From Candidatus Binatia bacterium (lineage in GTDB: Bacteria > Desulfobacterota > Binatia > UBA9968 > CAXXLF01): a stretch of 64,000 nt of DNA. The notes beneath the pieces were generated by a model. That model saw nothing but the letters and a program-made list of their open reading frames with translations. It did no database searches and had not been told where the DNA came from. Shown here one piece after another: positions 18,673 to 52,576 of this stretch. The stretch covers positions 32,001 through 96,000 of the forward strand of contig CAXXLF010000001.1 of the NCBI GenBank assembly GCA_963664015.2, in the 5' to 3' direction. Made by a program: the position numbers and the translations under genes. Every line of letters begins with the position of its first letter. Positions within the stretch are counted from its first letter, which is position 1.

Positions 18673-18707
18673 ATCGATTAGAACACGTTAGATAGAGTTG
18701 AGGAGCT

Positions 18708-27571: not shown

Positions 27572-29543
27572 CGAACCATGGGAGCGATCCTAAGGCGATA
27601 CGAAAATAGAATCGAAAGGGAGCTGAGGGACGGGAAGTCCAGGGGGATCCGAGTAGCACCAACCACCGGTTCATCCAACGGCAACGGTTCTCATTCAGGT
27701 CCCTCTCTGGAAGATTCCCGCGCCAGCATTCCCCCACTGGGACTTCGGGAGTACTGGTATCCTGCCCTGGCGGCAAAAAAAGTACGCCGCAAGCCTCTCT
27801 ACTGGAATATGCTCGGCGACGATCTGACCTTTTTCCGGGACAAGCAGGGAGAGGTCGTTGCCATTTCCGACATCTGCCCCCACCGCGGCGCCAGCTTGAG
27901 CGAGGGAGACTGCTTCTACAAGGGTTTTCTTTCATGCCCATACCACGGCGCCACCTTCGACGGGAACGGCGAGTGCGTCGCCTTCATCCCCGAGGGACCC
28001 GATTCCAAGATGGTCGGTAACTTGAGGATACGATCCTACCCGACAAAGACGCTACGAGAGTGGGTCTTTGTCTGGATGGGCGAGGGAGAGCCCGCTCCTA
28101 TCGAAGAAGACGTCCCACCGGAATTCTTTGAAGAAGGCAACGTGGTCATTAGCTCCTATACCTACTGGCCCATCAACTGGCTCATTGCTATTGAGAACCA
28201 TAGCGATTCTCATAACGCCCTCTACCTACACCGAAACTCTATCAAGCAGTTTCTGGGATTGTCCGCCGGGCGGACGCGTACTCCCCTCGGGGCACAGGGG
28301 AAAATCGTCAATGGACGGGGCCTGATCACCACCCACGCAAATGCCAAGTATTACGCCAAAAACGGTAAAGTTCCCTACCAGATGTACTATCCCGGAGTAG
28401 ACGGAGTTTGGCCGCAAAACCGTTGGCGTCTGCTCTGGCAATGGTTTTTCAAGCTCCTTTCGGGACCAAAAAAAGAAGGGAAGTACTTTGACGGGTACGA
28501 AGAATGGGGCCAGGGTCACCATCTCCCTGGGGTGGTCCGGACCGGCGGTGGCAGCACGAGGTATTCTATCGCTGCTGGGCCGAATTTATCACGCATCCTT
28601 TATTTCTATTTTCCACGAGCCGGCAACGAGGTAACTCGCACCCTACAGAGAATGTTCTACTACTTCATCTACGATCCATTGGAGTACAACTTTAGCAGTC
28701 AAGACGGTTGGGGGACCTCCTCGTGCCGCTACTGGACACCGGAACATCTCTCTTCGACGGACTCGCAGATCCTTGTTTTGCGCAAACTAATTTCAGAAGT
28801 CTCCAGGGACGCGCAACTGAGAAAGGCCGGGCCGGCCCACAGGGACCGGCGGTTGGAAAAACACAAGGAGGTCCAAGGTTAAGCGGACGCCGAACCATGG
28901 GAGCGATCCTAAGGCGATACGAAAATAGAATCGAAAGGGAGCTGAGGGACGGGAAGTCCAGGGGGATCCGAGTAGCACCAACCACCGGTTCATCCAACGG
29001 CAACGGTTCTCATTCAGGTCCCTCTCTGGAAGATTCCCGCGCCAGCATTCCCCCACTGGGACTTCGGGAGTACTGGTATCCTGCCCTGGCGGCAAAAAAA
29101 GTACGCCGCAAGCCTCTCTACTGGAATATGCTCGGCGACGATCTGACCTTTTTCCGGGACAAGCAGGGAGAGGTCGTTGCCATTTCCGACATCTGCCCCC
29201 ACCGCGGCGCCAGCTTGAGCGAGGGAGACTGCTTCTACAAGGGTTTTCTTTCATGCCCATACCACGGCGCCACCTTCGACGGGAACGGCGAGTGCGTCGC
29301 CTTCATCCCCGAGGGACCCGATTCCAAGATGGTCGGTAACTTGAGGATACGATCCTACCCGACAAAGACGCTACGAGAGTGGGTCTTTGTCTGGATGGGC
29401 GAGGGAGAGCCCGCTCCTATCGAAGAAGACGTCCCACCGGAATTCTTTGAAGAAGGCAACGTGGTCATTAGCTCCTATACCTACTGGCCCATCAACTGGC
29501 TCATTGCTATTGAGAACCATAGCGATTCTCATAACGCCCTCTA
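27572..29543 (+). repeat. Exact 653-bp direct repeat (27572-28224 = 28891-29543)
   Basis: By eye the two segments are identical from CGAACCATGGGAGCG to CATAACGCCCTCTA; offset 1319 bp. Confidence 0.9.
27578..28882 (+). CDS. Rieske non-heme iron oxygenase alpha subunit, copy 1
   Basis: CPHRG...CPYHG, ENHSDSHNALYLH, NFSSQD. Confidence 0.9.
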   Translation: MGAILRRYENRIERELRDGKSRGIRVAPTTGSSNGNGSHSGPSLEDSRASIPPLGLREYWYPALAAKKVRRKPLYWNMLGDDLTFFRDKQGEVVAISDICPHRGASLSEGDCFYKGFLSCPYHGATFDGNGECVAFIPEGPDSKMVGNLRIRSYPTKTLREWVFVWMGEGEPAPIEEDVPPEFFEEGNVVISSYTYWPINWLIAIENHSDSHNALYLHRNSIKQFLGLSAGRTRTPLGAQGKIVNGRGLITTHANAKYYAKNGKVPYQMYYPGVDGVWPQNRWRLLWQWFFKLLSGPKKEGKYFDGYEEWGQGHHLPGVVRTGGGSTRYSIAAGPNLSRILYFYFPRAGNEVTRTLQRMFYYFIYDPLEYNFSSQDGWGTSSCRYWTPEHLSSTDSQILVLRKLISEVSRDAQLRKAGPAHRDRRLEKHKEVQG

Positions 29544-30210
29544 TCTGCATCGAAATTCTATCAATCAGCTGATCGGCTTGTATCCAGGAAGGACACGTAC
29601 GCCCTTGAGCTCCCATGGAAAGATCGTCAACGGGCGAGGACTGGTGACGACCCACGGAGGTTTCAACTATTACGCCAGGGACGGGAAGGTCCCGTTTCAA
29701 ATGGTTTACCCGGCAGTGAATGGAAAATGGCCCCTCAACCGGGGGCGCTTGCTTTTGCTGCGCATTTGTAAACTCTTCATGAAGAAACAGCCCAGGCCGT
29801 TCGCAAAATACGAGGAATGGGGTCAGGGCCATCACCTGCCGTCGGTGGTCCGCACAGGAGGCGGAAGCACTCGATATGCGGTCCCAGTAGATGCAAACAC
29901 TTCGCGCATCGTCTATTTTTATTTCCCACGCCCCCAAACCCGAGTGACCCGGGCCTGGAAAAGGGTTTCCTTCACACTGATCCGCAACTCATTGGAGTAC
30001 AATTTTAGCGGCCAGGACAGGACCGCGGCAGCCTCGTGCCGTTTTTGGACAACCGAGCACCTTGCTCCAACAGACTCGCAGATCACTATATTTCGCAAGA
30101 TGATTACCGAACTCTCCAGGGACGCGCAGAGGGAAAGGACCCAAATCGGCCAAGGGGAAGAGATTCAAAGGAACCGGAGTCAGGAGCCGCCCATCGCACC
30201 GAAAAGTTAA
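28897..30210 (+). CDS. Rieske non-heme iron oxygenase alpha subunit, copy 2
   Basis: Identical N-terminal half to copy 1; diverged C-terminal half with NFSGQD. Confidence 0.9.
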   Translation: MGAILRRYENRIERELRDGKSRGIRVAPTTGSSNGNGSHSGPSLEDSRASIPPLGLREYWYPALAAKKVRRKPLYWNMLGDDLTFFRDKQGEVVAISDICPHRGASLSEGDCFYKGFLSCPYHGATFDGNGECVAFIPEGPDSKMVGNLRIRSYPTKTLREWVFVWMGEGEPAPIEEDVPPEFFEEGNVVISSYTYWPINWLIAIENHSDSHNALYLHRNSINQLIGLYPGRTRTPLSSHGKIVNGRGLVTTHGGFNYYARDGKVPFQMVYPAVNGKWPLNRGRLLLLRICKLFMKKQPRPFAKYEEWGQGHHLPSVVRTGGGSTRYAVPVDANTSRIVYFYFPRPQTRVTRAWKRVSFTLIRNSLEYNFSGQDRTAAASCRFWTTEHLAPTDSQITIFRKMITELSRDAQRERTQIGQGEEIQRNRSQEPPIAPKS

Positions 30211-33861: not shown

Positions 33862-35035
33862 ATGCAAAAGGAACAACCGATTATTCAGGAAACGACTGAC
33901 AATGCGGCGGGCGCCTTCTGGAGCCGGGTCTCTGCGTACGACCAATGGACTGAGTCTCTGGGTATTCCCATCCATAAAGGGTATTACATCGAGGATTTGA
34001 GAACGCTGGAACTTGGAGAGTGGGCAGAGCGTGAATGCCAAGCAGCCTTTTTAAAGCTCGCCGGCCAGGAAGGAGTCGGCGAGGCCCGAGTTACCGAGAT
34101 CGCTCCTGGAAAACCGCTGCCTCCCTTAAAGTTTACTCTGATGAGATCGTTTATATCGTCGAACGGCGTGCTTTGACCACCCTGTGGGGAGGGGAAGGTA
34201 AAGCAAAGAAAACCTTCGAATGGCAGAAGCACAGCATGTTTTTGATCTCCCGAAATTACAGCCATCAGTTAAGCAATATGCAGGGCGATAAGCCGGTCAG
34301 GCTGCTGCATTACAATTACCTTCCCATTGCCATGTCCATCGTGCCCGACGTGAGGTTGTATTTCGATAACCCCTACGTCGATCTGGACGTTGTGTACGGT
34401 CAGGATGGTGAATCCTATTCTCAGGCAAAGATTTTGAGACAATCAAAAGGATGCCGTTCGGGCCGGAGCACGTCGCTCCCCGGGAGGAAGCGGTGCCTTC
34501 TGGTTCGGTAATTTTTCCCCCGATATGAAGGCCTGGGATCAACTGGTTCCCTTCATAAGGCAGGGGAGCCGGAGGCCATGCCGTCTGGATTCGATTCCCG
34601 AGCTCGCCCCTGTGGAGCCATATATCGGTTCTCCCTTCCCGAACCTACAAAAAGGCCCACAGGCACGGCCCCGGAGTGGTGATCGTTATTCCTGATGGTG
34701 AGGGCTTCTCTGTAATGTGGCCGGAAAGTAAGGAAAGGGTAGTCATTCCGTGGCATGAAGCTAGTATCTTTGTACCTCCCGCCCGGTGGGATTACCAACA
34801 CTTCAATGTTAGTGGCCTTCCTTCAAGATACCTTGCCTTTCACTCACCAAGAGGGTGGAATGCCTACAGTGAAAAAGTGGAAGACAGGGCAAGAGACCAA
34901 ATTGAATATCCGGATGAAGATCCTTGGATCAGAGAAAAATTTGAGAGTGGACTGGCTCAGAGGAGCCTAAAGTCTCTCATGCCTGGGGAGGCTTATCAGG
35001 ACCTAAACTTCGAATGGACCTACGAAGAGGACTAA
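33862..35035 (+). pseudogene. Bicupin protein (paralog of 269..1345), multiple frameshifts
   Basis: GYYIEDLRTLEL, DEIVYIV, TFEWQKHS, KKAHRHGPGVVIV, DQIEYPDEDP spread over three frames. Confidence 0.82.
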
Positions 35036-35233: not shown

Positions 35234-36028
35234 TTAGGGGTATGGATTTTCCATGGCCGCCCGTTTCATCTGGGCGTGGAGATCGACCATGGCACGGGCA
35301 CAGTATTCCAGAGAGTAACCGGTCCTGAACTCCACATGGCCGCTTTCCAATGCTTGCTGAAGAACGGCGCGGTTAAAGGAGCCATGGCCCATAGCCTCTT
35401 GCCCGCTCTCGCCCAGCGCGTGGGACTCGAGATCGGCCTCCTCGTGAGTCGAAAAGTAGACCGCCTGCTCCTTGGTGAAGTTGTAATGAGTCGTGAGCGC
35501 CTTGAACCATGCCCCGGACCAGTGAGATAGGGATTCCTCGAAAACATGCATTCCCCACAGCTCAATGAGGGAGCCATCAATAAAAATCTTATGGGTAAAA
35601 TCATTGAGGGCTCGAGCCTCGGGCAGGTAGGGGTCTTCCAAAACCTCCTCTTTTGTCAGCCCCATAGCTTCCGCAGTCTGGACGAGCACGAGGACGTGTC
35701 CGGGGGCCCTGGGGGAGATCAATTCATCGGCGATCTTGGCACAAAACGGGCCCAGCAGCTCGTAGTGGCGGACAAAAAAGTTTAAATGGGTGTGATAGGA
35801 GAGGGCATTGAGAGCATTGACGTCCAAAGCGAAGTGTCCCCAGTTCTTGAAAAACTGCCGGATGACGGGCATGGGCAGTTTTCCCTCCCTTAGTTGGGTC
35901 ATGAATGGACTCCCCGGGATCTTGGTCTTCCAGTACTCGTACATCTGGCTGTACAGATAGTCCACATAGGCCTTGGCCTCGTCGGGGCTCATCTTCACAC
36001 CAGGGCGGAGCTCAGGGGTTTTTGACAT
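35234..36028 (-). CDS. Heme-oxygenase-like diiron enzyme (TenA/PqqC/CADD superfamily)
   Basis: All-helical; ADE...GH, FEE, YFSTHEEADLESH ligand pattern. Confidence 0.75.
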   Translation of the reverse strand: MSKTPELRPGVKMSPDEAKAYVDYLYSQMYEYWKTKIPGSPFMTQLREGKLPMPVIRQFFKNWGHFALDVNALNALSYHTHLNFFVRHYELLGPFCAKIADELISPRAPGHVLVLVQTAEAMGLTKEEVLEDPYLPEARALNDFTHKIFIDGSLIELWGMHVFEESLSHWSGAWFKALTTHYNFTKEQAVYFSTHEEADLESHALGESGQEAMGHGSFNRAVLQQALESGHVEFRTGYSLEYCARAMVDLHAQMKRAAMENPYP

Positions 36029-36162
36029 TTATCTTCCTCCTTGAATGGCCGGTGATTTTTCGCAATCAGAATATCTGGCGTGCTTACCATCGGTCACGCA
36101 GCTTGTCAAGAAACCCTTGTTGTGCTTTAAAACACTTGAACAAACGGGAAGGAGACACGAAC

Positions 36163-36828
36163 ATGGCTCAAGATAGTCTCGTCGCACGCCTGGCAAAACT
36201 CGATACTTGCGGAGTTTCCGATGCCCTGGACCGTCTGGCTCTCAGGGGAGCGACCATTGGGATTCGTCCCGTATGGCCCTGCCCGAGAATCGTGGGACGG
36301 GCAGTCACGGTCAAAATCAAACCCGCCGGCCTCGATAAATCGACCCAACACATCGGCACTCCGGCAATCGAAGCCGCTCAACCGGGGGACATCATTGTTA
36401 TTGATAACGCCGGCCGGCCGGATGTCTCCGTTTGGGGCGGGCTCCTGTCTTTGGCCTCCAAGACCAAAGGGCTCAGCGGTGTCGTCATTGACGGCGCGTG
36501 TCGGGACGTTGACGATTCTCGAGATGCGGGATTCCCGGTCTTTGCTCGAGCCGCTGTCTGTGTCACAGCAAGGGGGCGAGTGATGCAAAAATCGTTCAAT
36601 GAAGAGATCCAGTTCAGCGGCGTACAGGTGCACCCAGGGGATCTCGTTATTGCCGATCACAGTGGTGTAGTCATCGTGCCACAGGACAAACAAGAAGAGG
36701 TTATTACTCAGGCGGAGGAACTGGTGGCTACCGAGTCCCGAATGGCCGAGGGAATCCGCGCGGGTCGGCCCGTGGTTGAAGTCATGACAAACCTTGGATA
36801 CGAATCCATGTTAAAAAAGGAGGGGTAA
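36163..36828 (+). CDS. RraA/HMG-CHA aldolase family protein 1
   Basis: VSDALD, VWGGLL, DGACRD, PGDLVIAD. Confidence 0.88.
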   Translation: MAQDSLVARLAKLDTCGVSDALDRLALRGATIGIRPVWPCPRIVGRAVTVKIKPAGLDKSTQHIGTPAIEAAQPGDIIVIDNAGRPDVSVWGGLLSLASKTKGLSGVVIDGACRDVDDSRDAGFPVFARAAVCVTARGRVMQKSFNEEIQFSGVQVHPGDLVIADHSGVVIVPQDKQEEVITQAEELVATESRMAEGIRAGRPVVEVMTNLGYESMLKKEG

Positions 36829-36832
36829 GAGG

Positions 36833-37477
36833 ATGGATGCTCGAGTTGAGGCCTTCAAAGAACTTTCCGTCGCCGCGGTTTCCGATGCGATGGATCGACT
36901 GGGAATGCACGGGACCTGCCTAGGGGTCGCTCCACTGGCCAACGGGTACAGGATGGCTGGACGGGCATATACCTTAAAATATATTCCCGTAGGAGTCATC
37001 AAGGGAACAGTCGGGGATTATATCGACGATGTACCCCCGGGAGACGTGGTTGTTTTGGACAACGCTGGGCGTATCGATTGCACCGTCTGGGGTGACATCC
37101 TGACTTCCGTAGCCCACAAACGCGGCGTCGGTGGCACAGTCATCAACGGGGTATGCCGTGACGTGGCCCGCAGCCTGGGCCTGGTATACCCGATCTTCAG
37201 CCGGGGCAAGTTCATGCGCACGGGAAAGGACCGCGTACAGGTCGACGGCATGAACATCCCCGTCTCTCTAGGCGATGTCCAGGTCGCACCTGGCGATATC
37301 CTGGTTGGTAGCGACGACGGGATCGTTGTCGTCCCCAAGGAAAAAGAAGAAGAGATATTGAATGTGGCACTGTCCATCTCGGAGGCCGAGGGAAAACTAC
37401 TAGCTGAGGCCATGAAGGGGACACGCCTCGACGAAGCGAGAAAGAAGTATCGCTACCACGAACTGCAACGGCATTAA
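36833..37477 (+). CDS. RraA/HMG-CHA aldolase family protein 2
   Basis: VSDAMD, VWGDIL, NGVCRD, PGDILVGSDDG. Confidence 0.88.
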   Translation: MDARVEAFKELSVAAVSDAMDRLGMHGTCLGVAPLANGYRMAGRAYTLKYIPVGVIKGTVGDYIDDVPPGDVVVLDNAGRIDCTVWGDILTSVAHKRGVGGTVINGVCRDVARSLGLVYPIFSRGKFMRTGKDRVQVDGMNIPVSLGDVQVAPGDILVGSDDGIVVVPKEKEEEILNVALSISEAEGKLLAEAMKGTRLDEARKKYRYHELQRH

Positions 37478-37496
37478 GTTTCACTAAGGATCCCTC

Positions 37497-38138
37497 ATGC
37501 CTGATACAAAAGCTCCCAACATTTCTCCGCCGGACGCGGTACTTGTACAGCGGGCTGCCACTTACCCCTCGGCAACGTTACACGAGGCCATAGGGAGAAG
37601 GGGTGCGCTGCCCCATGACATCAAACCGATTGCTTCCAAAATGAAAGTCTGTGGGCCTGCTATAACAGTAAACTGTCCACCAATGGAAAACCTTGCGATC
37701 CATCGGGCCATTTATATGGCGCAACCCGGGGATGTACTGGTGGTCACTGTGGGTGGGGCGTACGGAGGCGGTTACTGGGGCGAGATCATGACCTTTGCAG
37801 CCCAGCAGCGAAAAATTGCCGGACTGGTTATCGACGGCTGTATTCGCGATAAGACTCTGATCGAAGAGATGGGCTTTCCCGTATTTTCCCGTGGGTTGTC
37901 GATTTGGGGCACGGTCAAAAACCAGGAGGGAACGGTCAACGCTCCCATCTCCATTGGAGACGTAGTAATCACCTCCGGCGACCTTATCGTTGGGGATGAC
38001 GATGGCCTCGTTGTGGTCCCCCGTCAGGAAATCGCGACCGCAATCGAAGCCTCGGAACAGAGAGAACAAAAAGAGGAGCAGTTCATGAAGGAGCTGGCCA
38101 AAGGTAAATCAACCCTGGAGCTCTTGGGTCTCAAATAG
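37497..38138 (+). CDS. 4-carboxy-4-hydroxy-2-oxoadipate aldolase-like (LigK/RraA family)
   Basis: ATLHEA, YWGEIM, DGCIRD, GDLIVGDDDG. Confidence 0.85.
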   Translation: MPDTKAPNISPPDAVLVQRAATYPSATLHEAIGRRGALPHDIKPIASKMKVCGPAITVNCPPMENLAIHRAIYMAQPGDVLVVTVGGAYGGGYWGEIMTFAAQQRKIAGLVIDGCIRDKTLIEEMGFPVFSRGLSIWGTVKNQEGTVNAPISIGDVVITSGDLIVGDDDGLVVVPRQEIATAIEASEQREQKEEQFMKELAKGKSTLELLGLK

Positions 38139-38237
38139 CAACCGCTAGTAAGCGACTCGCTGACAGCTTTCATTCCCACCGACAACTACCACGAACAAAA
38201 TCACGTTCTGCCACGCTCTACCCCTTACTCTAAGCGC

Positions 38238-39089
38238 CTAGTCGTCGTCGGAGTCGATCACAACTTCCCAGTCTTGCTCGGAAAATACTCGATGTGCCGC
38301 TTCGGCGCCTTGCAAGGTAATTCCCAACTGTTTCGCCAGCTCGATAGCCCGCCCCGTCCTCCCCGAACGGAGCCTGAGCCGGAACTTATGCTCGCCGTGA
38401 GTCAGCATCCCTTCAACCAGTTCGTTCAGGCGCCACGATTGGGCACACCCTCCGGTAACCGCACGCGCAAACAGCTTCGGATCCAGACCGGCCTTTTTGG
38501 CCAGGGAAAGGCCCTCATAGATCCCTAGTTCACACAGGGCCTGCATCATCTGATTGACCAGCTTGCCCATCTGGCCATTCCCGTTCTTTCCCAAATAGGT
38601 GACTGTGCTACCAATATACTGGAGCACGGGCAGGGCACGCTGGTAGGCCGAGTAACTTCCCCCGACAAAAACCGTGAGATGACCGTCGATGGCACCGGCA
38701 TCCGCTCCACTGACCGGCGCATCCAGCATCTCGACACCTTGTTCCCGTAGGGAAGTCGAAACTCGGATAGCCTGTTCCGGAGGCGTGCTGCTCAGATCCA
38801 CGAAGACCAGATCTTTCTTTCCACTGGTCACTAGCCCGTCTTTCCCCAGGGCAACTACTTCGGACGCCGATGCCTGAAGCGATGCCAGGACGATGCTCGA
38901 GCGACGGGCAACCTCGGCAGGGGAGGCAGCCATAGTGGCCCCTTCCGCCAGGTGGCGTTTCATCGCTTTTCCGTCGATATCGAACACGGTCACGGGAAAC
39001 GAGGCCCGCAATAACCGGAGCGCCATAGAGCCCCCCATGCTACCCAATCCGATAAAACCCACGCTGTCCCTTTGAGGTATTTCGGCCAC
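38238..39089 (-). CDS. NAD(P)-dependent oxidoreductase, 3-hydroxyisobutyrate/tartronate semialdehyde reductase family
   Basis: GFIGLGSMG, DAPVSG, GKLVNQ. Confidence 0.88.
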   Translation of the reverse strand: MAEIPQRDSVGFIGLGSMGGSMALRLLRASFPVTVFDIDGKAMKRHLAEGATMAASPAEVARRSSIVLASLQASASEVVALGKDGLVTSGKKDLVFVDLSSTPPEQAIRVSTSLREQGVEMLDAPVSGADAGAIDGHLTVFVGGSYSAYQRALPVLQYIGSTVTYLGKNGNGQMGKLVNQMMQALCELGIYEGLSLAKKAGLDPKLFARAVTGGCAQSWRLNELVEGMLTHGEHKFRLRLRSGRTGRAIELAKQLGITLQGAEAAHRVFSEQDWEVVIDSDDD

Positions 39090-39647
39090 TCAAGACCTCC
39101 CATCGAAATCTGGGGCATTCTCCAGTTGCTCCACACGAGAATATCCAATCATCTTATAGAGCCGATTGGTTGCCACGATCAATTGTACCGGTGACGATGG
39201 ATCCCCATTGAAGTGCTGGTGAATGGTGTTATGGGGGATATAGACCAGGTCCCCTGCCTTCCACCCCCACCGGCTGGGCTCTTTTGCCGGGCGCGCATGG
39301 TACCTGTCCGTGATCTCGACTTCCACTTCCCAGTGCATATCGAACCCACGCCCCTTGAGTATGTAAACAAACTCCTCGTTCTGGTGGCCGTGGCCCTTGT
39401 CCCTGGCGCCGGGGGCCAGAGTCACGTAGTGGGCGTGAAGACTCTGGGTGACAAAGGGCTCGGCCTGCGGGCTGAGGATGTTCTTCTCTTCCGCACTGCC
39501 GACCTTGTCCGAGCTTACCTCACGCCGGATCACACGTGGCACGGTCGCCAGCCGGTGCCGTCTGGCTTCGGTCAAAGAGTAGGTTTGACTCTCTACACCC
39601 TTTACGAAGATGCGCGATTTCGAATATCTCGCAGGAGGATTTGCCAT
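39090..39647 (-). CDS. Cupin domain protein
   Basis: GHGHQNEEFVYILKGRG, IPHNTIHQHFN. Confidence 0.82.
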   Translation of the reverse strand: MANPPARYSKSRIFVKGVESQTYSLTEARRHRLATVPRVIRREVSSDKVGSAEEKNILSPQAEPFVTQSLHAHYVTLAPGARDKGHGHQNEEFVYILKGRGFDMHWEVEVEITDRYHARPAKEPSRWGWKAGDLVYIPHNTIHQHFNGDPSSPVQLIVATNRLYKMIGYSRVEQLENAPDFDGRS

Positions 39648-41124: not shown

Positions 41125-41982
41125 ATGGCAAAACTCGTTGAGATTATCGGCATTACCCACAACCCCTTTCTCCCTACACTAATGAAAGCACCCGCCCCGG
41201 ATCCGGTCATCGTGCAGACTGCCAAGGACTATGATTGGATGCGGCAAAAAATGACCAAGGCCAGACCCGATGTCTTGATCGTTGTTGCCAGCGACCACCT
41301 GAACCAGTGGTTCACGGACAACATGCCCGCATTTATGGTGGGCAAGGCACCCTCCATCGAGGGGCCCGCACCAATAGAGATTCGCGCCTTCGGCCTGGCC
41401 CCTTATAAAGCCAAGATAGACACGGACATTGCCAAGGGTATCATCACGGAAGGCTCCCGTCTGGGCGTGGACTTCGCATTCTCCGACGAGTGCATGATTG
41501 ACCATGCCTTCACGGTACCGTTAAATTTTATACGCCCCGAGATGGACCTTCCCATTGTACCCATCTGGACCAACGTCATGGCTCAACCACTACCCAAAGC
41601 GCAGCGTTTTTACGACGTTGGCCAGCGCATCCGGGAAGCCGTCGAGGCGCTGCCCAACGGCACCCGGGTCGGTGTCGTCTCCAGCGGCCACCTGGCGGTG
41701 GAGGTCGGCGGTCCCAAGTCCTCTGACTACTCCGGGGATACAGAGTTTGATCGGCGCATGATGGAGTTGATCACTACCGGAGACGCACAAACGTTGATTC
41801 GGGAGGCGACCTTCGAGCGCATGGTGAAAGCGGGCAATGTGACCCCCGGATTTTTGAACTATGTTCTCCTCATGGGGATCGCCGGCGGGGCCAAACCCAC
41901 CGCCACGGGGTTGGAATTTCCCGAGGTCACCGCGGCCATGCACTATATGGACTGGGAGATAGATGGAGGAGGAGCTGCATGA
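41125..41982 (+). CDS. Class III extradiol ring-cleavage dioxygenase, LigB-like subunit
   Basis: GITHNP, SDHLNQWF, DHAFTVPL, VPIWTN. Confidence 0.85.
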   Translation: MAKLVEIIGITHNPFLPTLMKAPAPDPVIVQTAKDYDWMRQKMTKARPDVLIVVASDHLNQWFTDNMPAFMVGKAPSIEGPAPIEIRAFGLAPYKAKIDTDIAKGIITEGSRLGVDFAFSDECMIDHAFTVPLNFIRPEMDLPIVPIWTNVMAQPLPKAQRFYDVGQRIREAVEALPNGTRVGVVSSGHLAVEVGGPKSSDYSGDTEFDRRMMELITTGDAQTLIREATFERMVKAGNVTPGFLNYVLLMGIAGGAKPTATGLEFPEVTAAMHYMDWEIDGGGAA

Positions 41983-42266
41983 ACAGGTATCAAGTGAATA
42001 AAGTTATGAGGCGAGTTATCCAGGAGCCGGATTGCTTTCAAGCCTTCAAGGAGGACGCTGCTGCCTTCCTCGAAAAACAGAATCTAACCCAGCAGGAACG
42101 GGAGGCACTGATCAAGGTTGACTATCCGACCCTCTATGCCGCCGGGGTTCACCCCTTTCTTCTCAACGGCTTTGTCAATCGGGTCTGGACCGGGGATCGC
42201 GGGAAGCTAAGGACCGAGTATCGTGAAAAGATCGCACCCTTTGGGTACCCGGATTTTTCCACCTGA
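41979..42266 (+). CDS. LigA-like small subunit of extradiol dioxygenase
   Basis: ATGA overlap with the ligB-like gene; Y.VNK, LT.QEREAL...L.AAGVHPFLL. Confidence 0.8.
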   Translation: MNRYQVNKVMRRVIQEPDCFQAFKEDAAAFLEKQNLTQQEREALIKVDYPTLYAAGVHPFLLNGFVNRVWTGDRGKLRTEYREKIAPFGYPDFST

Positions 42267-43959: not shown

Positions 43960-44001
43960 TGGATAGCAAAGTATCAGACCGTCTTGATGAGGAGATTAAC
44001 T

Positions 44002-44550
44002 ATGAGCCAGGCTTCAGGAAAAATCGACCTCGCCAAGTTCAGAGAGGCCAATAAGGACCAGCGGGAGCGGGCCAAGAGGGGCCCCGGGGGGCACACGATT
44101 CAAACCCGCGCCGTGATCCGCCTGATCGAAAATCAACTAAAAGAGGCCAGGGTCGGAGATTATACCCTGCGGTGCGACGAGGCCAAGTCGCGAAAGGGAG
44201 GGGGAGAGGGGCCGTCGCCCCTGGCCTATTTCGTCGCTGCGACCGGATTTTGAATGTTCAGCCAACTGACGCGGTACGCGTCGGAACTGGACATTCAGAT
44301 CGATGATGCGGAAATGGATATCCGCATGAGCTACGACACACGGGGGAAGCAACACATTGCCGACGTCTCACCGGCCTGCCAGGAGGTGAATTACGTCTTC
44401 AAGATCAAGAGCCCCGCACCAACGTCCAAGATCACGGAGCTGGTAGAGATGATTGAGAAAGGGTGCCACACCATCAACACCCTGAAAGAGCCGATTCCTG
44501 TAAATGGTAAGCTGGCGCACAATGGGGAGACGATCGAAATAAAGGTCTGA
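44002..44550 (+). CDS. OsmC/Ohr-family protein with in-frame UGA, probable selenoprotein (Sec84)
   Basis: DE....GGGEGPSPLAYFVAATGF-TGA-MFSQ continues in frame to IEKGCHTINTL; TGA sits at the conserved Cys position; SECIS-like hairpin follows. Confidence 0.85.
44252..44296 (+). promoter_or_regulatory. Putative bacterial SECIS element
   Basis: GAATGTTCAG/CTGGACATTC lower stem, CCAA/AA internal loop, CTGACGCG/CGCGTCGG upper stem, GTA apical loop 20 nt after the UGA. Confidence 0.75.
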
Positions 44551-44574
44551 AGGCGCTTCGCGCCCTGAGCCAGT

Positions 44575-44814
44575 TGTCAGATGTCGGAGATCCGACGTCA
44601 GAGAAGAGACATAAGAGGTCGGAGAACCAAGATCAGAGTTCGGCTAAAAGGCAGGTAGCGTCAAGGTGCCAAGCTCGCAAAGAAAATTATTGTCCGATTC
44701 CTCCGACCTTGGCGTACTTTGTGTCTTTGCGCTCGCCCCATGGAGTATTGATCTCAAGGTAGGCCGAGTAAGCCCCAAAGGCTTTACTCCACGGGGCGAG
44801 CCCTCTTATTTCCG
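44575..44814. repeat. Intergenic repeat cluster: GTCAGA/GTCGGA units, host repeat, nested 17-bp inverted repeat
   Basis: GCTCGCCCCATGGAGTA (44731-44747) / TACTCCACGGGGCGAGC (44785-44801) inside CTTGGCGTACTTT...CTTATTTCCG. Confidence 0.7.
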
Positions 44815-44838: not shown

Positions 44839-46413
44839 CTAAAATTTGATAAATATTTCTTTAGCCTCTTCGCCGGTCAACTGGCCGATGGTGGTGATCT
44901 TGTCGCTGAATTCCTTCAGCGTCCCCAGAGAGTTGGGACCGACATCGATGAGGATCGAAAATAGCGAGAAGCCCAGCTTATTCTTTTCCTTGCAAAAAGC
45001 CTCTGCCCATTCACCGTTGACCTGACACTCCCCGTCGGTAATAAACACGATGTCTCCCTTTCGGGAACGCGACTTTTTAAGGCAATCAAGGGCTGCATCC
45101 AGTGGTTTCTGAAAATCCGTTCCGCCGCCGGGGAAGTACTCGGCCAGATCCATGACCTTATCCATCTCGACCTCGTAGCGCTCCTTGGGATTCATGTCGA
45201 GGATCTGGAGGGGTGACTCATCCGAAGAAAAGCAAATGGATTGAAAAGGGCGACGCTGGCGTCTTGCCATCTCGAGCAACGTTAGGGTAACCGCCTTGGA
45301 CCAGATCTCCTTGTCTCCTGCCATAGAGGAGCTGCCGTCCAGGCAGACCACCATGGGCCCCTTACCCTTCTCATCGGTACCCCTGAGGGAGTACTGGAGC
45401 AACTCCTGATCGAGGAAACGGCGATAGAAGTCCTTTCTAAGCCCCGGATGATGCAGCACCATCAGCTCGTTGGGAAGCAAGTGGTGAATCGAATCGCCCC
45501 GTTCAATCTCCAGGATCTCTTCGCTGGAGCGCTCGAAGACCTTTTTGCGTAGCGCCAGGGCGGAAACCTTCATGCGCCCCACCATTCGAACCAGTTTTTT
45601 TAGCTTCTCGTTACCCGCAAGGCGTCGGCCGAGTTCCAGCTTTCGCCCGGCAGGTGAACGATAACCGGTTCCCAACGTCAAGCTCCATTGCTCAGCCTCA
45701 TCGGCGGCATCTTCGAGCAGTTGGGCGACCCGGATGGCCTCCACCTGGAAACGGGCGGTAGTTTCCTTCTCCAACCGTTCGAGTTCCTCTTTGAACCTGC
45801 CCGCCTTTTGCCTGAGCTGGGCCCCAGCCCCGTCGTACTCCCCCTCGATTTTTTTCTTTCCCTGTTGCAGGTTTTTCTTGGCTTCCTGACTTAGATCCTC
45901 CTGCGATAGCCTCTCTGCTTCATCCAGTTCCTCTCCCTTTTCTTCGATAATCTCCTCTTGTCTTTTCAAGTCCCACAGGTCCAGCATCCCATGCCGTGAA
46001 AGTGCCTTTTCCGACTTGAGCAGCGCGATCACGCTTTCGCCCAGTAGGAAGGTGCACAGACCGGCCTTGGCCTCGTCGAGCAGGGTCAATTCGCGCAACG
46101 AGTGGTAGAGCTGGCCCGTCTGAAGCGCCTGAATTAACGTGCGATTATACAGCGCACTGGGAAGAACATCAGACTCTTTTAAAAATATAATGTTATACTT
46201 GAAGAGTAAGCAGAAAAGATCCTGTAGTAACATCGGAAAGTATGGCAGCAACTTATTACCAATCAATTCCAATTGGCCAAAGGCAGGGGACTCTCTACGA
46301 ATGGTATCGTAGCTGTGCCGGTCGTAAGCATCGCTTTCGATCCAACTGGAGTTCCGGGGCAGGGAACGCAGGACCGGTTTGTGGGGTAGGGTTTTCTTCC
46401 GCTTCGGCGGCAT
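44839..46413 (-). CDS. VWA domain protein (ViaA-like)
   Basis: C-terminal MIDAS DGSSSM, GGTDF, ITDG; lies downstream of a MoxR ATPase. Confidence 0.85.
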   Translation of the reverse strand: MPPKRKKTLPHKPVLRSLPRNSSWIESDAYDRHSYDTIRRESPAFGQLELIGNKLLPYFPMLLQDLFCLLFKYNIIFLKESDVLPSALYNRTLIQALQTGQLYHSLRELTLLDEAKAGLCTFLLGESVIALLKSEKALSRHGMLDLWDLKRQEEIIEEKGEELDEAERLSQEDLSQEAKKNLQQGKKKIEGEYDGAGAQLRQKAGRFKEELERLEKETTARFQVEAIRVAQLLEDAADEAEQWSLTLGTGYRSPAGRKLELGRRLAGNEKLKKLVRMVGRMKVSALALRKKVFERSSEEILEIERGDSIHHLLPNELMVLHHPGLRKDFYRRFLDQELLQYSLRGTDEKGKGPMVVCLDGSSSMAGDKEIWSKAVTLTLLEMARRQRRPFQSICFSSDESPLQILDMNPKERYEVEMDKVMDLAEYFPGGGTDFQKPLDAALDCLKKSRSRKGDIVFITDGECQVNGEWAEAFCKEKNKLGFSLFSILIDVGPNSLGTLKEFSDKITTIGQLTGEEAKEIFIKF

Positions 46414-46484
46414 TTGATATTTACCTATCCATCCCTCAACAGAACAATTTCAACCATGTGTATCGGGCCAAGCCGGCCCCGAGT

Positions 46485-46726
46485 TAAAGTCCGAATTCCG
46501 AAGCTCGGAATCTCAAACAAACCGAGACACTCAAATCCAAAATTCAAAATCCAAAACCAGACTATTTGGAGTTTTATGTTTATTGATCAATTGGCTTTGT
46601 TTCGAATTTCGGATTTCGAGTTTCGAATTTGTAATCTTCTTTATACTTGGCGTACTTTACGTCTTTCCCTCGACTATGCTCGGGACCCTGAGCCTGTCGA
46701 ATGGTGCACGGATCATCTTATTTCCG
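46485..46726. repeat. Heptamer-based imperfect palindrome plus second host repeat with nested REP-like palindrome
   Basis: CCGAATTCCGAAGCTCGGAATCTCAAACAA...TTGTTTCGAATTTCGGATTTCGAGTTTCGAATTT, then CTTGGCGTACTTT...TCGAC..GCTCGGGACCCTGAGC..GTCGA...CTTATTTCCG. Confidence 0.7.
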
Positions 46727-46764
46727 AATTGTAATCCAAAACGGAAACCTTTTTATTTCATTGC

Positions 46765-47883
46765 CTAGAACTTTTCCAACATCTCCTTTTGGACCTCTTC
46801 GATATCTCCTTTAACGGCCTCGACCTTGTTCAGAGGTCGACCGAGTCTCTCGGCCTTGGCCAGGATCTGCTCCACCTTGGCCAGGATGTTACGGAGCTTG
46901 GTGTGGACCTCGATCAGGGCCTGAGCGCGGGCCTCATTGGACTCCCATGTACGCATGGCGTATTCACGCTGTTCTCGGGATTGGTAAAGTAACTCCTGGA
47001 GTTCTTCCTCATAGCCCAGCAGAAGATCGTGGATAGTCGATCGGACTTCGGGCAGCTCCCCCGGGTTGCGCCACAGGGAGTGCTCGAGAAAGAAGAGATC
47101 TCTTTCGCTGACTTCTTTACCACCGGTTAGATAGCAATGGGCCTGGAGCAGAGACAGGCATTGACGATAGCGCCGGTCCGAAGCGATGATGTTCTTTTTG
47201 CCAAGCTCTCTGCGGATATCCGCCATGGTCCGGTAGATGGACTCTGGGACCGGGATCTCACGGACCTCGGCCTGCATGCTGCGAAGCCCCTCCAGATCGA
47301 GGGTCGTGCGCTCCCCTTGGGCTGGTGCTTCCAGCATTCGGATAAATCGGGAATCCTCAACAATATAGTCGACCACGAAGCGCAGTAGGAATCGATCGTA
47401 AAGGGCAACCAGTTCGTCATCTTCTGGTAGCTCGTTGCTCGCACCGAACAGGGTCAATAGGGGAACCGGAACGACGGCCCTGCCGTTGTGAAAGATCCGT
47501 TCGTTAATAATCGTGAGTATGGCGTTGAGAATGGAAGAATTGGCTTTGAAGATCTCGTCCAGAAAGGCAATATGGCATTCGGGAAGTTTGTATGACGTCA
47601 CCCGGCGATAGTCGTCCTGCTCAAGCGCCTTGAGGCTTACCGCACCGAAAACCTCTTCCGGCGTGGTAAACCGGGTCAACAGCCACTGAAAATACTCGGC
47701 CCCAACCAACCGCCGGCAGATCTCGTCAGCCAGCATGGACTTCGCCGTCCCTGGAGGACCAACTATCATCACGTGTTGGGAGCAAAGCAGGGCGCAGAGG
47801 GAACCATCGATCAATTCGCTTCGTTCCAAAAAGCCCTGCTGGAGCTCGGTGCGGATTTTGATGAGAATTTCCTGAGGTGTCAT
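46765..47883 (-). CDS. MoxR-family AAA+ ATPase, RavA-like
   Basis: GPPGTAKS, LLTRFTTPEEVFG, FLDEIFKA, ASNELP, ALYDRF. Confidence 0.9.
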   Translation of the reverse strand: MTPQEILIKIRTELQQGFLERSELIDGSLCALLCSQHVMIVGPPGTAKSMLADEICRRLVGAEYFQWLLTRFTTPEEVFGAVSLKALEQDDYRRVTSYKLPECHIAFLDEIFKANSSILNAILTIINERIFHNGRAVVPVPLLTLFGASNELPEDDELVALYDRFLLRFVVDYIVEDSRFIRMLEAPAQGERTTLDLEGLRSMQAEVREIPVPESIYRTMADIRRELGKKNIIASDRRYRQCLSLLQAHCYLTGGKEVSERDLFFLEHSLWRNPGELPEVRSTIHDLLLGYEEELQELLYQSREQREYAMRTWESNEARAQALIEVHTKLRNILAKVEQILAKAERLGRPLNKVEAVKGDIEEVQKEMLEKF

Positions 47884-48049
47884 GGGACTTGACCTGAGCC
47901 AACCGGTCCTTATAAAGGTAGCAAATGACCCGGGATGAGACAACAAAAACCCTCGACCTGGGAGTGACAATTGCACCGGATGGAGGTATAAGTAAACTTA
48001 TAGCAAGGCGAACCTGGTTAGAAAAAAGTCGTAGTAGGAGGGAAACACT

Positions 48050-48868
48050 ATGCCTATTATCACCATATACCGCGGCGCCTCCAGTGGGGGAGCCGACCTG
48101 GCCGAACGAGTGGGCGCCGAGTTAGGCTACCGGTGCGTGAGCCGCGAGGTTCTACTCGAAGCGAGCCGGCGTTACGGTATCCCTGAAACCAAATTCACCG
48201 AAATCTTGGAATCCGAGCCCCACTGGTGGGAGCGTTGGCGCGAGAGTCTAAAGCTATATCGGGTCACGCTTCAGGCGGCTATGTGCGAAATGGCCCTGGA
48301 GGGGAATATCGTCTACCACGGTCACGTGGGGCATGAACTCCTCCGCGGCGTCAGCCATGTCCTCAAAGTCCACCTGACCGCAACATTGGAATATCAGATC
48401 GAGCAGGTGCGCAGCCGTGACGGGATGGACGAGGAGAGCGCTCGCCGTTACATCGAAAATACCAACAAGGCCCGCTCACGCCGGCTGCAAGACCTCTTTG
48501 GCGCTGACTGGATGGATTCTAGCCGTTTCGACATGGTCCTCAATCTCGCCCACATGAAACCGGAGACCGCCTGCCAACTGATCGTCGCTGCCGTTAAGGC
48601 AGAGGAGTTTCAACCATCGGCCGAGTCACAACAGGTCTTCGAGAATCTGGCCCTGGCCTCAAAAGTAGAAGCCGCCCTGATGAGCACCCCGAGCATGCGC
48701 CATCTCAACATCTTTATCCGGGCCGATGGTGGGGTGGTCCAAGTCAGTGGGGTGTTGACCCAACCAGCCCTACAGGATGTGATCGTCCATGAGGTCGAGC
48801 AGGTCCCGGGCGTCACCCAGGTCGTTGCCGAGCTGGAAACGGCACCGATGGAGTATATATTCCCTTAG
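48050..48868 (+). CDS. Cytidylate kinase-like protein with C-terminal BON domain
   Basis: IITI.RG..SGG..LA..V...LGY; C-terminal V.ADGGVVQVSG...VPGVTQV. Confidence 0.75.
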   Translation: MPIITIYRGASSGGADLAERVGAELGYRCVSREVLLEASRRYGIPETKFTEILESEPHWWERWRESLKLYRVTLQAAMCEMALEGNIVYHGHVGHELLRGVSHVLKVHLTATLEYQIEQVRSRDGMDEESARRYIENTNKARSRRLQDLFGADWMDSSRFDMVLNLAHMKPETACQLIVAAVKAEEFQPSAESQQVFENLALASKVEAALMSTPSMRHLNIFIRADGGVVQVSGVLTQPALQDVIVHEVEQVPGVTQVVAELETAPMEYIFP

Positions 48869-48889
48869 CCCCCTCGGCCTGTCTCTTTT

Positions 48890-49492
48890 ATGATTGCAGC
48901 GGTTATTTTATCCGGGGGTGAATCCAGCCGGATGGGTTCTCCCAAGGCCCTTCTCCCCGTGGATGGGCAGTCCTTTATCGAACGGATCGTTGGCGCCCTC
49001 CAGGCCAGCCGGGTGGGAAGGATCCTGGTGGTACTCGGCCATCACGCGAGCGAGATCGGACCCAGAATTCAACACCTATCGGTTACGGTGGTAGTCAATC
49101 AGGACTACCGAAAGGGGCAGCTCTCCTCGCTCGTCGCTGCCATCCAGTTCCTAGAAGCGGAAGAGGGTACAGAACCCATAGACGGCCTGATGGTCCACCT
49201 GGTGGACCACCCGTTTCTGAGCCCGGCGTTGGTTGACAAGATGATCGAACGTTTTTATCAGTCGGGAAAGTGGGTCGTGGTGCCCACGTATAAGGGCAAG
49301 CGCGGGCATCCGGTCCTATTTTCAAAAGAGCTTTTTTCCGAGCTCCTCGATGCGCCGCTGGAACAGGGCGCCAAGCGCGTCGTTCACGGCCACCGAAACG
49401 AGACCCTGGAGATTGCGACAGATGAGAAAGGGGTTGTGGTTGATATCGACACGCCGGAAGAGTATCGGGCCCACCTCGACCGGTCACCATGA
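48890..49492 (+). CDS. mocA: Molybdenum cofactor cytidylyltransferase-like nucleotidyltransferase
   Basis: LSGGESSRMGSPKALL, LVDHP, GHPVLF, DIDTPEEY; near an XDH-family gene. Confidence 0.75.
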   Translation: MIAAVILSGGESSRMGSPKALLPVDGQSFIERIVGALQASRVGRILVVLGHHASEIGPRIQHLSVTVVVNQDYRKGQLSSLVAAIQFLEAEEGTEPIDGLMVHLVDHPFLSPALVDKMIERFYQSGKWVVVPTYKGKRGHPVLFSKELFSELLDAPLEQGAKRVVHGHRNETLEIATDEKGVVVDIDTPEEYRAHLDRSP

Positions 49493-49517
49493 ACCGCCCG
49501 AGACCATGAAACTCTAA

Positions 49518-50255
49518 ATGGTACTGGCCCTGCTCCTTGGATCATCCATGCTCATGTCCTTCTGGGGAAATTTCAACCTGGCCAAGGATCATCGTACCGC
49601 AGACCGTTCTAGCGCCGAGATCGCCCCGGACCCAGCAGAAACCAAAGAAGCGATAGTCCAAGTCTACACGGCGCGTGCCTTTAACTGGCGTGGCATCTTC
49701 TCGCTGCACAGCTGGATCGCCACCAAGGAGACCGGGGCTTCATACTATACGATCTACCAGGTCATCGGCTGGCGCGTACGGCGAAATCTCCCCGCGCTTG
49801 TGGCCCTCCAAGACATCCCCGACCGAAACTGGTTTGGCGCCCGACCAAAAATAATATCCGACCTGAGAGGCGAGCCCGCCACAAAAGCCATTACGGGGAT
49901 CAACCAGGCCGTCGAGGAATATCCTTACGCCGGGAAATACACACTTTGGCCGGGACCCAACAGCAACACATTCACCGCCCATGTTGCGCGGAGGGTCCCC
50001 GAACTCGCCGCCGAGATTCCTTCCACGGCCATCGGTAAGGACTTTCTGACCAACGATTCGATCATCGGTCCTGCCCCTAGCGGAACCGGATATCAGCTAT
50101 CCCTATATGGCCTTGTGGGATTGCTCTTGGCCAAAGATGAAGGCTTGGAGATTAATCTGCTGGGGTTGATCTTTGGCATCGATCCCCTCGGACCTGCTAT
50201 AAAGTTGCCATTCATCGGCCGTCTCGGTTTCTCCCTCGACCAACCCAAAACCTGA
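49518..50255 (+). CDS. DUF3750 domain protein
   Basis: WRGIFSLHSWI, VIGWR, WPGPNSNTF, AIGKDF. Confidence 0.8.
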   Translation: MVLALLLGSSMLMSFWGNFNLAKDHRTADRSSAEIAPDPAETKEAIVQVYTARAFNWRGIFSLHSWIATKETGASYYTIYQVIGWRVRRNLPALVALQDIPDRNWFGARPKIISDLRGEPATKAITGINQAVEEYPYAGKYTLWPGPNSNTFTAHVARRVPELAAEIPSTAIGKDFLTNDSIIGPAPSGTGYQLSLYGLVGLLLAKDEGLEINLLGLIFGIDPLGPAIKLPFIGRLGFSLDQPKT

Positions 50256-50344
50256 TCGCCGTCGACCTGGGACCGGTAAAAAAAGATTGCAAATCACTGG
50301 AAAATCCGTCATCTTCTCCCTCCAGAACCGAGTCGTCACACCAA

Positions 50345-52576
50345 ATGAAGGAGCCAGCAGTGAAAAGTCAAATCGTTGGAATTTCCACTCCAAGAGTCGA
50401 AGGAGAACTGAAGGTTACGGGCAAAGCGGTCTACACGGTCGACAGGGTCCTACCCGACATGCTCTGGGGTAAGGTTCTAAGGAGCCCCATCCCCTACGGC
50501 TGTATCAAGCGAATTGACGTGAGCCGGGCGCGAAACCTGCCCGGGGTCAAGGCCATCGTTACGGCAGAGGACGCTCCAGGACGCAAGATCGGAAGACGAA
50601 TCTATGACATGCCGATCCTCGCCGAAAATGTCGTACGATTCATTGGAGAAAAGGTCGCCGCCGTTGCCGCAGAGACTGAGGATATAGCCGAACAAGCCGT
50701 CGATCTTATCGAAATCGAATATGAGGAAATGGATCCCGTACTCGACTCGATCCAGGCGATGGATCCTTCGACGCCGCTTATTCACCCGGATGTATTGAAC
50801 TACAAAGGTCGGCCCGGCAAGCTCGACGCCCCGAGCAACGCCTTTATTCAGCTTTCCTGGGGCAAGGGAAGCATTGAAGAGGGCTTCCAGCAGGCAGACA
50901 TCATCGTGGAGAACTCCTTCACGACCCCCATGGTACACCACGCTTACATCGAGCCGCACTCCTGCCTTGTCAAAACGAATACGGCCGGAGGTGCCGAGAT
51001 CTGGGCCTGCTGCAAAGCACCCTACGGCCTGCGCGACCAGATGGCCAATGCCTTTGATATTCCTACCGAGAAGTTCGTGTTGAACCCTTCATACATCGGC
51101 GGCGACTTCGGCGGTAAAGGCGATTTTATGGACGTCCCCGTTTGCTACCTCCTATCCAAGAAGGCGGGCCAGCCGGTCAAGATGGTCATGGACTACGAAG
51201 AGGAGTTAACCGCCGGCAATCCGCGCCACGCATCGATCATCAAGGTCAAGACCGGCGTCAAGCAAGACGGACAGATCGTCGCCCATTATATGGAATTTAT
51301 CTTCAACAGCGGCGCCTATGGTGCCTTCAAGCCCGTGGGTTTTCTAGGCGGCCCCCAGGAATCGGCCGGTCCTTACATGATTCCTCATGTGCTCATCGAA
51401 GAAAAGATGGTCTATACGAACCAGGTCCCCTGCGGGCACATGCGCTCGCCCGGTGACCCCCAGGATTTTTTCGCCAATGAGAGCCAGATGGACCTTATCG
51501 CCAAAAAGCTCGTCCTGGACCCCATTGCATTCAGAAAAAAGAATCTGATGCACGACGGCGACCTGTCCCCCACGGGCAAGGTTGTACCCTTTATCAAGGC
51601 CGAAGCGACCCTGGATAAGGCGCTCGAAGCCTCGGGCTATTACAAAACAAAACCGAAGAACGTCGGTCGAGGACTGGCCCTCACCCAATGGATGACCAAT
51701 GGGGGCAAGGGAACCGTAGCGCTTGATATCGACCAGGAAGGGATGGTGACCCTTTCCTCCGCTTTGGTCGACCAGGGTGGAGGAACCTTCACGGTGCTTT
51801 GTGAGGTCGTGGGGGAGGTGCTCGGCATCCCGGTGGAACAGATCAGGGTGCAGAGCCTGGACACGGGGCGGGGTATTGAAGACACGGGTATCGGCGGGAG
51901 CCGAGGGACCCGGGTCTTCGGCAACGCGGCCTATACGGCAGTTGCCAAGGCCGAAGAAGAGCTGAAAAACACCGCCGCGTCATTAATGGGGTTAAGTCCC
52001 GTGGATTTGCTCCTTGCCAAGGGGGCCGTCCAACATGCCAAAGGTAAGCGGCGTATGACCTACAGTGAGATCGTCAAGGCTAAGGGGGCACCGATCAGCG
52101 TTGTGGGCTCCTATGACGATACTGCCAAGGTCCCCGATGCCTCCATGTGTGTGCAGGTGGCGGAGGTGGAAGTGGACCAGGAGACCGGGGAAATCAAACT
52201 CAGGCGATTTACTTCAGCGCACAACACGGGGACGATTCTCAACCCGCTCATGCATCAGGGCCAGATCGAAGGCGGTATCGTGATGGGGTTGGGTTACTCC
52301 CTCATGGAACACCTCAGAGTCGAGGACGGCAAGGTTGCGACCACCCATTTTGGAGACTACAAAATTCCTACGATCCGCGATGTCCCGAACCTCAAGACCG
52401 CTATCCTTGAGGTACACCGCGGCTCCGGTCCTTATAACAGCATGAGCATCGGCGAGACCTCCAACATCCCGGTGGCCGCTGCCGTCGCCAATGCGGTGAA
52501 TGACGCCGTAGGAGTCAGGGTTAAATCACTCCCCATCGGCCCCGAAGAGGTCCTCGCGGCCATGAAACGATTCTGA
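50345..52576 (+). CDS. Xanthine dehydrogenase family molybdopterin-binding subunit
   Basis: KVTGKAVY, YIEPH, GGDFGGKG, MRSPG, GQIEGG, IGE. Confidence 0.92.
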   Translation: MKEPAVKSQIVGISTPRVEGELKVTGKAVYTVDRVLPDMLWGKVLRSPIPYGCIKRIDVSRARNLPGVKAIVTAEDAPGRKIGRRIYDMPILAENVVRFIGEKVAAVAAETEDIAEQAVDLIEIEYEEMDPVLDSIQAMDPSTPLIHPDVLNYKGRPGKLDAPSNAFIQLSWGKGSIEEGFQQADIIVENSFTTPMVHHAYIEPHSCLVKTNTAGGAEIWACCKAPYGLRDQMANAFDIPTEKFVLNPSYIGGDFGGKGDFMDVPVCYLLSKKAGQPVKMVMDYEEELTAGNPRHASIIKVKTGVKQDGQIVAHYMEFIFNSGAYGAFKPVGFLGGPQESAGPYMIPHVLIEEKMVYTNQVPCGHMRSPGDPQDFFANESQMDLIAKKLVLDPIAFRKKNLMHDGDLSPTGKVVPFIKAEATLDKALEASGYYKTKPKNVGRGLALTQWMTNGGKGTVALDIDQEGMVTLSSALVDQGGGTFTVLCEVVGEVLGIPVEQIRVQSLDTGRGIEDTGIGGSRGTRVFGNAAYTAVAKAEEELKNTAASLMGLSPVDLLLAKGAVQHAKGKRRMTYSEIVKAKGAPISVVGSYDDTAKVPDASMCVQVAEVEVDQETGEIKLRRFTSAHNTGTILNPLMHQGQIEGGIVMGLGYSLMEHLRVEDGKVATTHFGDYKIPTIRDVPNLKTAILEVHRGSGPYNSMSIGETSNIPVAAAVANAVNDAVGVRVKSLPIGPEEVLAAMKRF

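Follow-up and report, generated by a model that had tools for sequence, protein, structure and literature searches.

In the window, the 64,000-nucleotide stretch of DNA that was analyzed, the gene of interest is the last in a run encoding LigB-like, LigA-like, aldo-keto reductase, and GST proteins. It appears as two open reading frames, 43984/44002-44253 and 44254-44550, which share a frame broken solely by the TGA at 44251-44253, as the original prediction had stated. Read through with this TGA as selenocysteine (Sec), the gene at 44002-44550 yields a protein of 182 amino acids with U84 and C155, 71 residues apart, in agreement with the joined product and second Cys that had been proposed; its true stop is a second TGA at 44548-44550. 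The following features were recognized:

43989..43994, + strand: Shine-Dalgarno-like GAGGAG, read from the sequence, 7 nt 5' of the ATG at 44002
44002..44550, + strand: predicted gene for a 182-aa OsmC-related (Ohr-like) selenoprotein, from NF041052 and PF02566 matches, a predicted structure, and a fold search
44176..44193, + strand: Asp59-Glu60 and Arg64 codons, from alignment rows
44221..44223, + strand: Leu74 codon, aligned with the initial Glu of the canonical OsmC "NPEE" motif, which we take to be the catalytic Glu position
44251..44253, + strand: in-frame UGA, predicted selenocysteine 84; it corresponds to the first catalytic Cys and falls midway along helix 73-95
44251..44297, + strand: predicted bacterial SECIS hairpin, from folding, orthologue comparison, and bSECIS constraints
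44251-44261 with 44287-44297, + strand: SECIS lower stem, 11 bp including the UGA, 8 bp beyond it
44266-44273 with 44277-44284, + strand: SECIS upper stem, 8 bp
44274-44276, + strand: SECIS loop GUA, with the loop G 20 nt after the UGA
44464..44466, + strand: Cys155, the second Cys, at the resolving position 71 residues past Sec84
G000:C2:687840-688298, 1336540-1336980, and 1596922-1597380: UGA-bearing OsmC-like paralogues in the same genome, 26 to 32% identical

A scan for promoters and terminators gave signals near chance levels, and no terminator was found after the gene. A 239-nt contig from one RNA run covers 44393-44631, 3' of the UGA, with a word share of 0.05, which does not establish transcription; a single contig among the RNA contigs listed bridges the UGA, and its run is possibly the source of the window DNA itself.

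The sequence from 44251 to 44310 has a folding energy of -25.8 kcal/mol (z -4.4), and none of 200 shuffles was equally stable; the candidate satisfies the four bSECIS model constraints published in PMC13188914. The 8-bp upper stem, the GUA loop, and the position of its G at 20 nt were as first described, whereas the lower stem comprises 11 bp including the UGA and not 10 bp after it. Silent divergence is halved within the hairpin (pS of 0.35, against 0.64 and 0.69 outside it; 23 sequences), two of four fourfold columns are invariant there compared with 0/40 outside, and close orthologues keep 90% of the pair cells. The covariation that had been proposed as a check was obtained in part: there was no compensatory base-pair change among 24 distinct close orthologues, because their hairpin sequences are too alike, and double changes (G-C to U-A and G-C to C-G) were confined to comparisons between paralogous clades and thus represent few independent events. 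With the paralogues added, all seven upper-stem pairs formed in 38 of 46 distinct Sec sequences but in none of the 10 Cys sequences, and an apical GGUA was present in 43/46 and 0/10, respectively. On this comparison, the predicted hairpin goes with the UGA and not with the protein and is lost in the Cys relatives; it is conserved in TGA-bearing homologues, as a SECIS element should be on the original prediction. The genome contains 111,938 TGA triplets; 65 of them had the upper stem and the G in register, and 1 had both stems, a count that is partly so by construction because the template was taken from the 44251 site. Since the scan with the exact hairpin register retrieved only this gene and one paralogue, no count of the selenoproteome can be drawn from it. 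In the third paralogue (1596922-1597380), the hairpin is weaker and lies in another register, and Cys orthologues of this gene occur in other genomes.

The genome, which is 97% complete, contains selA, selB, and selD in one block together with a tRNA-Sec, so that every component of the selA/selB/selC/selD set that was to be sought is present; its selD has an in-frame TGA of its own. Of the 23 orthologue genomes, 21 gave a selA match and 20 a selB match; two of the three genomes with gaps have a TGA-bearing selD, and one of these two has a clear tRNA-Sec. In G065, a fragmented assembly, no selA, selB, or selD was found, and the tRNA-Sec match was borderline only; one missing contig could account for these gaps. 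We fetched 25 orthologue loci, two of them from one genome and two frameshifted elsewhere (L038 and L039), and in all 24 in which the motif was readable, a TGA is followed by an ATG. A search of 123 genomes of the order gave 25 full-length matches with at least 68% identity (this gene included; the matches overlap the 25 fetched loci), each with one TGA. Two database searches yielded 191 proteins when pooled, 122 of which span the Sec84 site; Cys occupies that column in 113 of the 122 and in PDB entry 3CJE, and Trp occupies it in 1 (P0002, 74% identical), so that the comparison suggested at residue 84 returned Cys or TGA and not a column of Trp or other residues. The expectation that standard annotation would split the gene was also borne out, in that 55 of the 191 database proteins are halves cut at the UGA, 47 beginning right behind it and 8 ending at it. 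Both sides of the UGA are under purifying selection (pN/pS of 0.13 before it and 0.21 after it; 23 sequences, with the two frameshifted loci excluded), and the genome holds four NF041052-type genes, three of them exceeding the family cut-off, with one TGA each in the same column.

The Sec machinery, the conserved TGA, the Cys homologues, and a SECIS element tied to the UGA all favor the selenoprotein that had been proposed. Judged from sequence comparison, the locus is almost certainly one gene in which SelB uses the hairpin for insertion at residue 84 and the product is a 182-aa protein with the OsmC/Ohr fold; SelB with Sec-tRNA would recognize the hairpin 3' of the UGA and place selenocysteine there. 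A pair of translationally coupled genes, the first stopping at the TGA and the second restarting at the adjoining ATG, might be read from the invariant ATG of the 24 orthologues and from the database half proteins, but we consider it highly improbable. Met85 is also found in the Cys relatives, and Leu follows the UGA in three paralogues, so the ATG reflects a constraint on the protein; half proteins are the usual output of gene callers at a Sec codon, TAA or TAG never substitutes for the TGA, and a clear Shine-Dalgarno sequence was not found before Met85. Residue 84 lies inside helix 73-95 of the predicted structure, and a split gene would therefore break a core helix and remove the catalytic residue. 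Less credible again is a pseudogene in which the catalytic Cys codon, TGC or TGT, suffered a nonsense mutation to TGA: such codons are one base away from TGA and some broken genes are apparent in the window, but the TGA is common to orthologues of 65 to 78% identity whose silent sites approach saturation, and the purifying selection seen in both halves is incompatible with a recent nonsense mutation, so that conservation refutes this explanation. The least probable of all is an alternative genetic code in which TGA specifies Trp or another standard residue, since the lone Trp of P0002 is set against a column that is overwhelmingly Cys, TGA terminates many ordinary genes here, including this one, and the sole tRNA found with a TCA anticodon is called tRNA-Sec.

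The joined protein scored 148.4 bits against NF041052, "OsmC-related (seleno)protein" (cut-off of 95), over positions 2 to 144 of the 144-position model, and 52.5 bits against the Pfam OsmC domain PF02566; neither TIGR03561 (Ohr) nor TIGR03562 (OsmC) matched it at an E value of 0.01, and neither had a match in the genome at 1e-30. The product of 44002-44550 is thus very probably an intact Sec/Cys redox enzyme of the NF041052 family. OsmC-like selenoproteins had been said to be on record, and this is so: they entered the literature in 2005, when a UxxT motif and a SECIS element were reported for them in the Sargasso Sea data set (PMC1088965), are listed in PMC9312934, and are counted as a known selenoprotein family in PMC1976440, while a 2026 inventory places the family under "Predicted with high confidence" and not under "experimentally verified" (PMC13188914). 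The family is therefore already known, and the present product is an additional member for which the substrate class is a prediction only. It resembles the NF041052 or "OsmC-like protein" selenoproteins in scoring above the cut-off, in having a PF02566 domain, and in carrying Sec at the first Cys position with a SECIS element 3' of it, but has UxxS where the published proteins have UxxT (PMC1088965), and its N-terminal ~32 residues, a predicted helical arm, fall outside the NF041052 model. Our literature search, which covered work on selenoprotein neighborhoods in part, found nothing on this clade or on a link between OsmC and molybdenum (Mo) hydroxylases, and term searches showed that "OsmC" is absent from PMC13653126 and bioRxiv 2022.07.06.499078.

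The predicted structure (pLDDT of 85) has the OsmC/Ohr fold, and a fold search gave 2OPL as the best match (TM of 0.74), followed by 2ONF, 1LQL, and 3CJE. The best matches by sequence and fold are thus Ohr-like/YhfA proteins (3CJE from Jannaschia, 2OPL, which is Geobacter GSU2788, and 1LQL), with which the protein shares two redox positions ~70 residues apart and the absence of the catalytic Glu; 3CJE has Cys at both positions and 2OPL lacks the second Cys, whereas here Sec replaces the first. Canonical Ohr (TIGR03561) and OsmC (TIGR03562) proteins share the fold, at 10 to 17% identity in structural alignments. In an alignment with three canonical OsmC proteins (TIGR03562 matches), Sec84 and Cys155 align with both catalytic Cys residues, Leu74 occupies the column of the catalytic Glu, and Arg64, within a loop that contains gaps, falls opposite the "RFE" Arg, the residues of "RFE" and "NPEE" being presumably the catalytic ones, to judge from the motifs and from the positions described in PMC5384416. 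Asp59-Glu60 is invariant in 20/20 aligned rows and Arg64 is present in at least 90% of them, although only 31 of the 122 wider homologues have Arg in that column. The OsmC/Ohr family is defined by two Cys residues ~60 residues apart, to which the Ohr and OsmC subfamilies add an Arg and a Glu that are absent from "Ohr-like" proteins, a Jannaschia protein among them (PMC5384416). We accordingly file the product as Ohr-like, and not as OsmC or Ohr, because the catalytic Glu is absent, while noting that Arg64 may match the OsmC Arg that Ohr-like proteins reportedly lack.

Of the peroxidase or reductase activity originally assigned to the protein, the selenoprotein part is supported, but peroxidase activity is less secure with Leu74 at the catalytic Glu position, and for one Ohr-like protein, the peroxidase results of two laboratories conflict (PMC5384416). 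By analogy, we lean toward a two-center thiol/selenol reductase. The Sec84 selenolate would attack an oxidized substrate, most likely an organic hydroperoxide or a similar electrophile, Cys155 would resolve the oxidized Sec84 to a selenenylsulfide, and a dithiol donor, either a lipoylated or an AhpD-type protein, would reduce the selenenylsulfide again. Being more acidic and more nucleophilic, the selenol may compensate for the missing catalytic Glu; as a speculation, Arg64 might form a substitute activating pair with Asp59/Glu60. Lipoylated proteins serve as donors for Ohr/OsmC, with an AhpD route in Corynebacterium, and the YhfA group is described as uncharacterized (PMC8945050). The genome has two CMD/AhpD-domain matches and five biotin/lipoyl-domain matches; one CMD/AhpD-domain match (G000:C2:289687-289845) contains one in-frame TGA and is likely to be a further selenoprotein.

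A conserved dioxygenase operon was considered as the genomic setting and rejected: none of the 40 loci tested gave a match to ligB, ligA, or the aldo-keto reductase gene, and two genomes of the same family keep the block from ligB to the Mo hydroxylase without osmC. The local context, which had been put forward as a source of novelty, is thus not conserved. Within 1.5-kb flanks of the 24 Sec orthologue loci, the gene directly upstream is AhpD-like in 10 and encodes a Mo-hydroxylase large subunit of the xanthine dehydrogenase family in 4, and 10 have neither; those AhpD-like neighbors that were read contain an in-frame UGA. At L027, L028, and L030-L034, an OsmC-like selenoprotein gene is clustered with two or three AhpD/CMD-like genes whose in-frame UGA is part of a CxxU motif, with a gene for a reductive-dehalogenase/QueG-like Fe-S protein and, in some cases, with a GST gene, a possible multiselenoprotein redox operon in other Binatia-like genomes.

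Several other parts of the window deserve mention in their own right. The LigB-like and LigA-like genes (41125-42266) have relatives in 90 of the 123 genomes of the order (E value of 1e-70), and the LigB-like protein shares the first two His positions with gallate dioxygenase but has Val at the His of "GGLSHQ" and no Glu in the "AEVVMW" column, residues that we take to be the base and the third iron ligand; from its sequence, the pair may combine a ring-cleavage fold with altered chemistry. Downstream, 44839-52576 encodes a ViaA-like VWA protein, a RavA-like AAA+ ATPase, cytidylate-kinase/BON, MocA-like cytidylyltransferase, and DUF3750 proteins, and a stand-alone Mo-hydroxylase large subunit that scores under every family cut-off, with ~18 related large-subunit matches in the genome; the order of these genes is conserved in G002 and G004. 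The two tandem open reading frames at 27578-30210, which we assume from motifs to be Rieske-type oxygenase-like, are nearly identical over their N-terminal two thirds, which suggests a recent duplication or an assembly repeat. The genes at 35234-39647 encode a TenA/heme-oxygenase-like protein, three tandem RraA/HMG-aldolase-like proteins, a hydroxyacid dehydrogenase, and a cupin, the first four being syntenic in G002, and open reading frame fragments at 16436-18691 and 33862-35035 resemble a frameshifted FAD/Fe-S oxidoreductase gene and a frameshifted cupin gene, respectively.

A sister group with 35 to 48% identity comprises 24 rows without a stop, and the 21 that were read all have Cys. All 24 genes lie directly 3' of the same Mo-hydroxylase large-subunit gene (18 placed by coordinates and 6 separately), and Sec and Cys forms occur together in four genomes. 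In a tree of 30 rows (15 of 45 were dropped) with the Sec/Cys site masked and a root that was chosen and not inferred, all 10 Cys rows fall in a single clade (100/100), which is placed with the close Sec rows and apart from the five outgroups, themselves Sec-bearing (97/98). On this tree, parsimony favors one Sec-to-Cys change, and the clade probably arose by a change in this direction; such changes are rare in bacteria (PMC13188914). A hint from a quick tree that the Cys clade is nested inside the Sec clade was set aside, a grouping of the 15 close Sec rows together not being rejected (AU P value of 0.41). The Cys clade loci (L109-L112, L071-L076, and L120-L132) are without a SECIS element and sit on a long branch, and the glycine-rich loop after Asp59 is altered.

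This arrangement raises the doubtful but substantive alternative that the product is a real selenoprotein but the dedicated partner of a Mo hydroxylase of the xanthine dehydrogenase family, and not a general peroxide reductase; a sulfur/selenium carrier, a cofactor reactivator, or an electron sink would be its roles, none of which we regard as probable. The position of the Cys sister clade behind the same large-subunit gene, the four Sec orthologue loci with that arrangement, the copy of the Mo-hydroxylase gene in the window (50345-52576), 5.8 kb from the gene, and the missing peroxidase Glu all favor such a partnership. Against it, 20 of the 24 Sec orthologue loci, some cut by contig ends, have no such neighbor within 1.5 kb, the osmC-like and Mo-hydroxylase genes are not adjacent in the present genome, two genomes of the same family retain the whole block without osmC, and OsmC goes unmentioned in a 2026 review of Moco sulfuration; moreover, the Cys rows that were tested group as one clade, and the 24 cases may therefore represent a single inherited arrangement. 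The two-center reductase is the function that we prefer.

At an E value of 1e-30, 3 of the 123 genomes of the order had a canonical OsmC match and none a canonical Ohr match; an NF041052 gene above the cut-off is present in 58 of 61 relatives, this genome included; the near absence of the canonical enzymes thus leaves room for the NF041052 family to fill their role. These observations could be joined in one scheme, which we put forward very tentatively and consider unlikely to hold as a whole. A Sec-containing Ohr-like set would have replaced Ohr/OsmC in the order and expanded, selenium substituting for a Cys activated by Arg and Glu; the present clade would have begun as a Mo-enzyme partner and yielded a Cys copy, and that fast-evolving copy would have stayed beside the Mo gene, even where the Sec copy was kept.

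In summary, the analysis corrects the annotation of a gene that gene callers routinely split, in a family whose OsmC-like selenoproteins have so far been predicted only and within an Ohr-like subgroup whose activity is unsettled in the literature consulted. The scarcity of canonical Ohr/OsmC, the Mo-linked Cys clade, and the AhpD-selenoprotein neighbors are useful leads that leave the kind of system unchanged; of these, the Mo-hydroxylase link gives a concrete clue to function. With its Cys sister clade, the gene offers a natural comparison of what selenium contributes where the catalytic Glu is lacking; if the joint scheme were true, an uncharacterized Ohr-like subgroup would gain its first specific partner together with a natural Sec/Cys test pair.
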